Shown here piece by piece: positions 33,775 through 34,710 of a stretch of DNA of 64,000 bases. The DNA comes from Dehalococcoidia bacterium (GTDB lineage: Bacteria > Chloroflexota > Dehalococcoidia > Lucifugimonadales > UBA3495). The stretch covers positions 564,466 to 628,465 of the forward strand of contig CBDBDT010000001.1 in NCBI GenBank assembly GCA_965203975.1, in the 5' to 3' direction. Under the pieces are notes generated by a model, which did not search any database, was not told where the DNA came from, and saw nothing but the letters and a program-made list of their open reading frames with translations. Within the stretch, counting starts at the first letter, position 1, and every line of letters starts with the position of its first letter. The translations under genes were made by a program, and so were the position numbers.

Positions 33775-34710
33775 TCAGGCGGCGGGGTTGGTGTACACGC
33801 GGAGGGCGCCGGCTTCGGGGATCATGCCTGAGAAGAGCTCGGGGTGGAGCATTTCGGCGATGATTTCCAATCCGTCCACGAGCCGAGGGCCGGAACGGCT
33901 GGTGTAGGCGCTGGCGTCGATGGCGTAGACCCGGTTGTTCTGCACGGCGGGCATGGACTCCCAACCCTCCTTACTGGAGAGGATGGGGACGTCCTCCAGC
34001 GCGCGTTTCACCTCGAAGCCGCAGGGCATGAAGATGATGACCTCGGGACGGCTGGCGACGACGTCCTCCCAGTCAATCTGGAAGGAGCCGGTCTCCTTGT
34101 CTCCGAAGCAGTTTTCTCCGCCCGCCATTTCGACCATCTCCGGGACCCAGTGCCCCCCGCACATGAGGGGGTCAACCCATTCCAGGTGGAGGGTGCGAGG
34201 GTGGGTGTCGGCCAGGGCGGAGCGGGCGGCGACGGCGTCGATGCGGGACTGCATCCGGGAGACGACTTCCTCGGCCTTCTGGTCCTGACCGGTCGCCTGT
34301 CCGACACGGCGAATGTCGTCGAGGATGTCGCCCACGTACTGGGGGTCGAGGGACATGACCTCGGGCTGCTGGTCGAGGATGGCGGTGGTCTCGGCGACCT
34401 GCCGAGAGGAGACGGCTCAAACCTCGCAGATGGCCTGGGTGAGGATGAGGTCGGGGTTGGCTTCCTTGAGGATGTCCTCGTCAATCTGGTAGATGCCGAG
34501 GCCCTGCTCCAGCCTTTCGGAGATGACCCGGCTGATTTCGCCGCTGGTGGGCTGGGGGTCCATGCCCTCGAAGACGCTGCGTACGACCCAGGGTTTCTCC
34601 TTGGCGGCGGCGGGGAAGTCGCATTCGTGGGTGACACCGTGGAGCTGGTCCTCGATGCCGAGGGCGTAGACGATCTCGGTGGCGCTGGGTAGGAATGAAC
34701 AAACGCGCAT
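33775..34710 (-). CDS. BtuF/TroA-like (Peripla_BP_2 fold) binding protein without a signal peptide, predicted selenoprotein (TGA 34417-34419 read as Sec)
   Basis: Track ORFs 34417-34854 and 33775-34356 share a frame. ATG at 34708-34710 lies 6 nt after GGGAGG. The joined product reads [33 protein letters not shown]...LILTQAICEV-U-AVSSRQV...HLEWVDPLMCGGHWVPE, giving a C-x-x-U motif. Confidence 0.65.
34389..34407 (-). promoter_or_regulatory. candidate bacterial SECIS hairpin
   Basis: U-CUCGGC-AGGUC-GCCGAG-A. The stem starts 9-10 nt after the UGA. The GCAGGUC apex resembles the E. coli fdhF SECIS apex as remembered. Confidence 0.55.

Follow-up and report, generated by a model that had tools for sequence, protein, structure and literature searches.

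A probable selenocysteine-containing member of the predicted BtuF (CxxU) family in a Dehalococcoidia genome

This analysis concerns a 64,000-nucleotide (nt) stretch of DNA from a Dehalococcoidia bacterium (GenBank assembly GCA_965203975.1, contig CBDBDT010000001.1, positions 564,466 to 628,465), referred to below as the window, and within it a minus-strand BtuF-like gene (34710..33775) that is interrupted by one in-frame UGA. The gene is very probably (about 0.9) a genuine selenocysteine (Sec)-containing member of the catalogued, predicted family ‘cobalamin-binding protein BtuF (CxxU)’ in a SAR202-type Dehalococcoidia genome. Decoding of the UGA, codon 98, as Sec is strongly supported by comparison of related genes. 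In the proposed mechanism, UGA98 would be recoded by a bacterial-type selenocysteine insertion sequence (SECIS) minihelix, CUCGGC-AGGUC-GCCGAG, which begins 10 nt downstream; the ordinary TGA stops of the genome, the gene’s own terminator included, carry no such element.

The interrupted gene and its SECIS-like hairpin

Two minus-strand open reading frames (ORFs), 34417..34854 and 33775..34356, share one frame in the ORF list of the window. An earlier note on this DNA had described them as parted by a single TGA at 34417-34419, and both its coordinates and its quoted peptides are correct. Translation of 34710..33772 yields 97 residues, a stop and 213 residues. The complete predicted selenoprotein gene comprises 311 codons (97 amino acids (aa), Sec98 and 213 aa) and a terminal TGA at 33777..33775, and would encode a protein of BtuF/Peripla_BP_2 fold that lacks a signal peptide. 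The in-frame UGA (34419..34417, minus strand) lies in the motif C95-E-V-U98 and is read here as Sec. The profile PF01497 (Peripla_BP_2) covers residues 8-267 in one unbroken match across the TGA (E 2.2e-27), which bears out the earlier proposal of a joined 311-aa Peripla_BP_2/BtuF-fold protein. A Shine-Dalgarno-like GGGAGG, read from the sequence (34716..34721, minus strand), lies 5 nt upstream of the ATG at 34710, and the start Met is common to homologues (MR[VI]CS).

Homologues were sought among 5.8 billion proteins. The full-length ones (304-326 aa, 50-67% identity) all carry Cys in the UGA column, within C-[EDQ]-V-C, across more than eight phyla and the haloarchaea; the UGA stands opposite the second Cys of a CxxC pair, as the earlier note had proposed. 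Short homologues (194-220 aa, 72-94% identity) cover only the C-terminal two thirds and begin just past this column. Their DNA contains a 95-97-aa ORF that ends at a stop, with the called gene beginning two codons later, so these short proteins are gene-caller truncations of the same interrupted gene. All database records of this gene are split, into a piece of 95-97 aa and one of 208-215 aa.

The locus scan took one genome per GTDB species and gave 79 loci (L numbers below denote individual loci). The aligned codon is TGA in about 58 of these 79, and L001-L005, which come from additional genomes and metagenomes, share it. Metagenome data contributed another 13 Sec forms, all of marine origin (L103-L112, L115, L118, L120), as well as a group of Cys forms from soil. 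TGC or TGT is found at the aligned codon in Methylomirabilis, Acidobacteriota, Binatia, Fervidibacter, Solirubrobacterales, other Planctomycetota, some Dehalococcoidia and haloarchaea. Relatives of both kinds, with TGA and with TGC/TGT, which the earlier note had proposed to look for, are present. The stop codon is TGA in all 58 distinct Sec-form genes, never TAA or TAG. When the window gene is compared with eight relatives, the ratio of nonsynonymous to synonymous substitution rates (dN/dS) ranges from 0.06 to 0.19 upstream of the TGA and from 0.09 to 0.23 downstream, although synonymous divergence is saturated (dS 0.7-2.5); purifying selection acts on both sides of the codon.

The hairpin that the earlier note had placed at SECIS distance occupies 34407..34389 on the minus strand. 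It has the stem UCUCGGC/GCCGAGA, with a 6-bp core CUCGGC/GCCGAG that starts 10 nt past the UGA, and the apical loop AGGUC; it is also the centroid structure of the local RNA fold. It is found in all Dehalococcoidia and Entotheonella Sec forms, with the loop AGGUN. The freezing of synonymous sites is the decisive evidence for a SECIS. Across the 58 Sec-form genes, 170 codon columns hold a conserved amino acid with degenerate codons, and only 6 of them lack synonymous variation; four of the six are stem codons of the hairpin (R103 CGG, Q104 CAG, A106 GCC and E107 GAG). The loop codon V105 is free (GTT/GTA/GTC/GTG, entropy 1.42 bits in the 58 genes). Soil Cys forms provide a control: with the near-identical peptide C-A-I-S-S-R-Q-V-T-E, they use CGC/CGT and ACG and cannot form the hairpin. 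Codon 97 (GUU, 34420..34422, minus strand), directly 5′ of the UGA, is GTT in 57 of the 58 distinct Sec-form genes although Val has four codons, which suggests a constraint from UGA context. A different hairpin, of 7 bp and 18 nt past the UGA, is present in the Sec forms of Planctomycetota; its loop is AGGU/GGGU/GGGC, and one of its pairs varies as A-U/G-U/G-C (three sequences only).

The main Sec group, of Dehalococcoidia/SAR202/Chloroflexota, has the signature ICEV-U-A[VI]S[ST]RQV and includes the closest relative of the window gene (L006, 97% aa identity). A divergent Dehalococcoidia subgroup (about 57% identity) has LC[GA]E-U-AIT[AE]RQV, and the TGA form also occurs in Candidatus Entotheonella TSY1 and three Planctomycetota. 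In a neighbour-joining tree, the window gene falls inside the main Dehalococcoidia Sec clade, within which the Sec form of Entotheonella and the Cys forms of soil Tectimicrobiota are also nested. This nesting suggests a transfer, possibly between sponge symbionts, followed by reversion from Sec to Cys with loss of the hairpin. The Entotheonella copy itself (L052, 6001-7244) has a TGA and hairpin sequence identical to those of Dehalococcoidia and groups with the Cys forms L085-L102 and L135. The Planctomycetota Sec forms branch separately, beside a Cys form, and these bacteria changed Cys to Sec independently, at the same residue. Such repeated exchange of Cys and Sec at a single site typically marks a residue that is critical for function. 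The three loci concerned (L080, 4253-5092; L081, 6001-6864; L082, 1652-2515) read LCDV-U-A[VT]PP, and their sister L069 keeps Cys. Two further copies look broken, each being perhaps a true pseudogene or an assembly error: a Dehalococcoidia metagenome-assembled genome (MAG) gives a frameshifted match with five stops (L057, 6001-6908), and a soil contig (L094), whose gene is otherwise of the Cys form, has a stop in place of Gln92.

When the window was scanned for TGA codons flanked on either side by coding signal, exactly two emerged, one in the BtuF-like gene and one in a redoxin gene; TGA is the ordinary stop for many window genes, the BtuF-like gene included. The redoxin gene (16910-17506, minus strand) is a second selenoprotein candidate. 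It encodes an AhpC-TSA/Redoxin protein of thioredoxin fold with a lipoprotein-like N-terminus, and its Pfam match spans the TGA. That codon (17221..17219) lies in FWATT-U-GVC (UxxC), and a hairpin, CCGCCG-AGUUG-CGGCGG, follows 10 nt downstream; by its sequence the candidate fits the known ‘redoxin family UxxC’ selenoproteins. The BSepDB paper (PMC13326102) gives 49 selenoprotein genes for Dehalococcoidia bacterium UBA1141 and 46 for isolate 10f4566d, and ranks both in the top ten bacteria by this measure; both (L049 and L041, respectively) carry the TGA form of the BtuF-like gene. Sec use in this organism is supported indirectly by the second UxxC candidate, with its similar hairpin, together with these selenoprotein-rich relatives, and we infer that the genome encodes the Sec machinery.

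Several results weigh against the assignment as a Sec-containing BtuF (CxxU) protein. No selA, selB, selD or tRNA-Sec was found in the 64-kb window (ARAGORN and Pfam annotation of about 40 window genes), nor any sel gene or tRNA-Sec in about 1 Mb (0.99 Mb) of related loci (tRNA-Sec by ARAGORN). The folding energy of the hairpin does not differ significantly from that of shuffled sequences (z = -0.9). A count of pair covariation on 53 hairpins shows no classical covariation, four to six pairs never varying; covariation is uninformative here because the stem is invariant. Rfam gave no SECIS family at the gathering threshold over the whole window, and only noise at E <= 10 on 34330-34450. The published reviews, finally, place the BtuF CxxU family under ‘predicted’ rather than ‘experimentally verified’ (PMC9312934, PMC13188914).

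Other explanations of the UGA fare far worse than Sec insertion. The codon could be a disabling mutation in a pseudogene or a miscalled base: a single in-frame stop looks like a fresh nonsense mutation, gene callers have split the gene in every database record, and some copies elsewhere are truly broken (L057 by a frameshift and five stops, L094 by a stop at codon 92). However, the identical TGA recurs in 58 distinct sequences from independent assemblies at dS of about 1-2, purifying selection holds on both halves with TAA and TAG never used, and the downstream hairpin is conserved at the nucleotide level. The shared TGA, low dN/dS and conserved hairpin effectively refute this explanation, which has next to no chance of being right. 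That the UGA is a true stop, with a 97-aa N-terminal fragment assembling with a restarted C-terminal fragment, is extremely unlikely. Codon 100, where translation would restart, is GTC in the window and, among relatives, GTG, GTT or, in many of them, ATT, ATC or ATA, and the split gene was rejected because no start codon is conserved after the TGA, even though some relatives have GTG two codons past the stop and called products that begin ‘MSSRQV...’. The cut would also fall in the middle of the cleft loop of the N-lobe, at the residue that is Cys in all unsplit homologues, and would leave the exclusive use of TGA and the SECIS-like hairpin unexplained.

Readthrough without Sec would insert Cys, through the Sec machinery or a suppressor/allo-tRNA, or Trp by near-cognate decoding. 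No Sec machinery was seen in the window, and the Cys forms show that Cys is functionally acceptable at the site. This explanation is very improbable nonetheless and was rejected: the layout of the hairpin is that of a SelB-binding SECIS, close relatives are published as selenoprotein-rich, the second UxxC candidate has the same device, and TGA ends many window genes normally.

Fold, cellular location and possible function

The AlphaFold2 model of the protein (pLDDT 91.8, pTM 0.90) has two lobes connected by a long helix, residues 143-164. Foldseek against the Protein Data Bank (PDB) returned 187 matches at E <= 1e-3, and all 50 matches listed share the class III solute-binding fold. The best are a putative iron-binding protein of Staphylococcus epidermidis (4M7O), then BtuF and the haem-binding proteins ShuT, PhuT, RhuT, BhuT, HutB and HmuT, at TM of about 0.7-0.8 and about 20% identity. 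A PDB profile search matched Vibrio BtuF (E 3e-21), and a PDB sequence search found no solved structure with the CxxC loop. On this model, the protein is assigned to the class III (cluster A) solute-binding fold, Peripla_BP_2.

In the alignment with Vibrio BtuF, residue 2 stands opposite residue 22, and the protein thus lacks a signal peptide; the in-frame stretch upstream of the start enters the 3′ end of the neighbouring antiporter gene. No ABC permease or ATPase is found among the window neighbours of the gene, nor among its immediate neighbours in L001-L005 and most other loci examined; at Tectimicrobiota locus L135, an isolated ABC_tran ATPase gene stands some 1.3 kb upstream, with an XdhC gene in between. 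Since both a signal peptide and an adjacent ABC permease/ATPase are lacking, the protein is not the periplasmic BtuF of a BtuCD-F importer. By its sequence and gene context, it would be a cytoplasmic orphan binding protein rather than the BtuF of a transporter.

Four Cys/Sec positions are invariant in 36 diverse members from about ten phyla and the haloarchaea, namely Cys30, Cys95, Cys/Sec98 and Cys230; His187, Trp188, Trp178, Arg156, Arg276 and Gln92 are invariant as well. According to the secondary structure of the model, the four Cys/Sec each follow the C-terminal end of a beta-strand (23-27, 88-92, 224-227). In the class III fold, the ligand contacts that line the cleft sit past the C-terminal ends of strands. 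The C-E-V-U loop comes directly after the strand ‘PDLIL’, and its BtuF counterpart ‘PDLIIAW’ ends in a Trp, the ligand-contacting Trp66 of E. coli BtuF; cobinamide complexes of W66 mutants of BtuF are among the Foldseek matches. The four positions would accordingly line the ligand cleft in the model. A sulfur- and selenium-rich cleft site is proposed because the invariant Cys/Sec follow strand ends where the fold places ligand contacts. The selenol/thiol cluster at the interlobe cleft might ligate a metal-centred ligand or, alternatively, process the ligand by reduction, decyanation or dealkylation. The suggestion of the earlier note that the CxxC/U pair is redox- or metal-active rather than structural is reasonable and would fit the four invariant Cys positions.

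A corrinoid is the most likely ligand, to judge from homology and gene context. The nearest folds are tetrapyrrole binders (BtuF and haem-binding proteins), and in the Methylomirabilis-type clade the gene for the Cys form overlaps cobQ and lies ahead of genes for a TonB receptor, another Peripla_BP_2 protein and a CbiA-type protein. Some observations count against this function. The NCBIfam BtuF equivalog NF002894 scores 48.8 bits against a cutoff of 234, and the other NCBIfam matches, to binding proteins of the same fold, are also sub-threshold. Adjacency to cobalamin genes is confined to the Methylomirabilis-type clade; neighbours in other phyla are unrelated, and in one Tectimicrobiota genome the Cys form stands beside XdhC/CoxI and a [NiFe]-hydrogenase cluster with HycI.

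The same observations can be taken as support for a serious rival, in which the protein is a cytoplasmic metallochaperone or Fe-S protein that holds a bare soft metal (Ni, Zn, Cu, Hg or Mo/W species) or an Fe-S cluster through an interlobe Cys3Sec site, perhaps with His. By analogy, it might be likened to TroA/ZnuA-type proteins and to nitrogenase-like members of the fold superfamily. Four invariant Cys positions and His187, drawn from both lobes, would suit such a site; so would the BtuF equivalog score far under its cutoff, the lack of cobalamin-gene linkage outside one clade, and the XdhC/CoxI and hydrogenase context. The last, however, is a single case, the best sequence and fold matches are tetrapyrrole binders and not ZnuA/TroA metal binders, and the cobQ/cbiA/TonB-receptor context in Methylomirabilis-type genomes speaks for a corrinoid. 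The metallochaperone or Fe-S explanation is possible but rather unlikely.

A more specific hypothesis is that Cys30/Cys95/Sec98/Cys230 (with His187) makes a direct Se/S bond to corrinoid cobalt or to another soft metal or cluster, and that the family is an uncharacterised class of cytoplasmic selenium-assisted cofactor-trafficking/processing chaperones. We regard this as improbable. If true, such chaperones would be widespread in SAR202/Dehalococcoidia, would have spread to sponge-associated Tectimicrobiota and would have been reinvented in Planctomycetota. The question it raises is whether SAR202-type bacteria, which abound in the deep ocean and in sponges and rank with the most selenoprotein-rich bacteria known, use selenium to help handle a corrinoid or metal.

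Genomic neighbourhood and other features of the window

The upstream neighbour of the BtuF-like gene (34820..36658, minus strand) encodes a 612-aa membrane protein of the Na+/H+ exchanger family (PF00999, E 7e-58). The gap between the two genes is 110 nt, the exchanger adjoins the BtuF-like gene in 45 related loci, and the two are possibly co-transcribed. A stand-alone LON substrate-binding-domain protein (32787-33620, plus strand) is encoded convergently on the other side. This LON-domain neighbour is present in 51 loci, including divergent Sec and Cys forms in Dehalococcoidia, with a full-length Lon in Fervidibacter (L070), a single locus outside the phylum, and is conserved more widely than the upstream antiporter. 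The antiporter and LON neighbours mostly reflect lineage synteny. OsmC-like and RidA-like proteins are further neighbours in the window.

A string of minus-strand genes (114-8419), 26 kb from the BtuF-like gene, begins with a cobalamin riboswitch (8220-8419, 117 bits). The string encodes a ChuX/HutX-like protein (7124-7603), a CobQ/CbiA-type amidotransferase (5711-7096), the corrinoid adenosyltransferase CobO (5069-5644), CobT (3906-4985), CbiB/CobD (2073-3032), an aminotransferase (870-2027) and a histidine phosphatase (114-743). From its gene content, it looks like a B12-regulated operon for corrinoid salvage and nucleotide-loop assembly. Elsewhere, a 675-aa ORF (38425-40452, minus strand) encodes an unusual fusion, in which the N-terminal domain is GPP34 (Golgi phosphoprotein 3-like) and the other a cytochrome P450. 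A complete 23S rRNA gene (20487-23548, minus strand) is followed immediately downstream only by tRNA-Met (CAU) (region 20310-23548). The 64-kb window contains neither a 16S nor a 5S rRNA gene; the rRNA genes are therefore unlinked.

The catalogued family and related systems

Two review tables of prokaryotic selenoprotein families list a cobalamin-binding protein BtuF with the motif CxxU, and both credit Peng et al. 2016 (PMC9312934, PMC13188914). The later one gives MDE0719563.1 as the family representative (PMC13188914, 2026); RUA21600.1 is the other catalogue representative. BtuF is not named in the text of Peng et al. 2016 or in the supplements examined, and the attribution rests on the two tables. 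The tables give only domain, motif and accession for the family, with no SECIS, distribution, location or function. The earlier note had supposed that the family might be undescribed, a claim that these published tables overturn.

The window protein has a single Sec in a CxxU motif (C95-E-V-U98) and one in-frame TGA. The BtuF-type domain, cd01144 in the catalogue, is represented by PF01497 (E 2e-27), the profile match to the Vibrio BtuF structure and the Foldseek result, and a close Cys homologue is annotated by NCBI as ‘cobalamin-binding protein’. As in the catalogued family, the window protein has a BtuF-type domain with one Sec, second in the pair, and belongs with computationally predicted MAG proteins of uncultured bacteria; it is assigned to the family by domain and motif description.

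Because the family and its CxxU motif are already published, the selenoprotein call itself is not categorically new. The present analysis adds a corrected annotation of the split gene, a SECIS frozen at synonymous sites and a separately evolved SECIS in Planctomycetota. Together with the lack of a signal peptide and of a neighbouring transporter partner, and with the four invariant Cys/Sec positions, it turns a list entry into a testable hypothesis. The overall interest is modest and rests on the possibility that selenium helps an abundant marine lineage to handle a corrinoid or metal.

A bacterial element for comparison with the hairpin is the E. coli fdhF SECIS, in which the UGA is followed by 11 nt and then GGUUGC-AGGUC-UGCACC. 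The window hairpin resembles this layout in its spacer of about 10-11 nt, its 6-bp upper stem and an AGGUC/AGGUU loop with the G-U recognised by SelB. It differs in stem sequence and lacks the bulged U. For the chemistry of the cleft, BtuM (Cys-Co ligation, decyanation) and the CblC/CblD chaperones offer precedents, in that a Cys thiolate ligates cobalt or removes the upper ligand of cobalamin. Similar thiol chemistry may be proposed for Cys95/Sec98 as an analogy of mechanism only, since the folds are unrelated and share no sequence similarity with the window protein.

SaoB and SaoX are likewise solute-binding-type selenoproteins, and their Sec is proposed to make contact with a ligand that contains a metal (Haft & Gwadz 2022/2023). 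Unlike the window protein, they have CU or UxP motifs and are exported ABC-transporter subunits encoded in a nine-gene SAO locus of anaerobes; they have their own NCBIfam models (NF040727, NF040735), neither of which matches the window protein.

The BtuF of E. coli and Vibrio (1N4A, 1N2Z, 5YSC) is the periplasmic protein that binds vitamin B12 for the BtuCD-F importer. The window protein differs from it in having no signal peptide and no adjacent permease/ATPase, and the two share only about 20% identity. Past the ‘PDLI(L/I)’ strand, the window protein has the loop C-E-V-U, against W-(R/P)-x-G-N in BtuF, which lacks the four invariant Cys/Sec positions. Both nonetheless share the two-lobed class III fold (Foldseek E 1e-14 to 1e-16), the LxPSATE/APHATE motif after strand 1, GHW in the C-lobe and GPR near the C-terminus.

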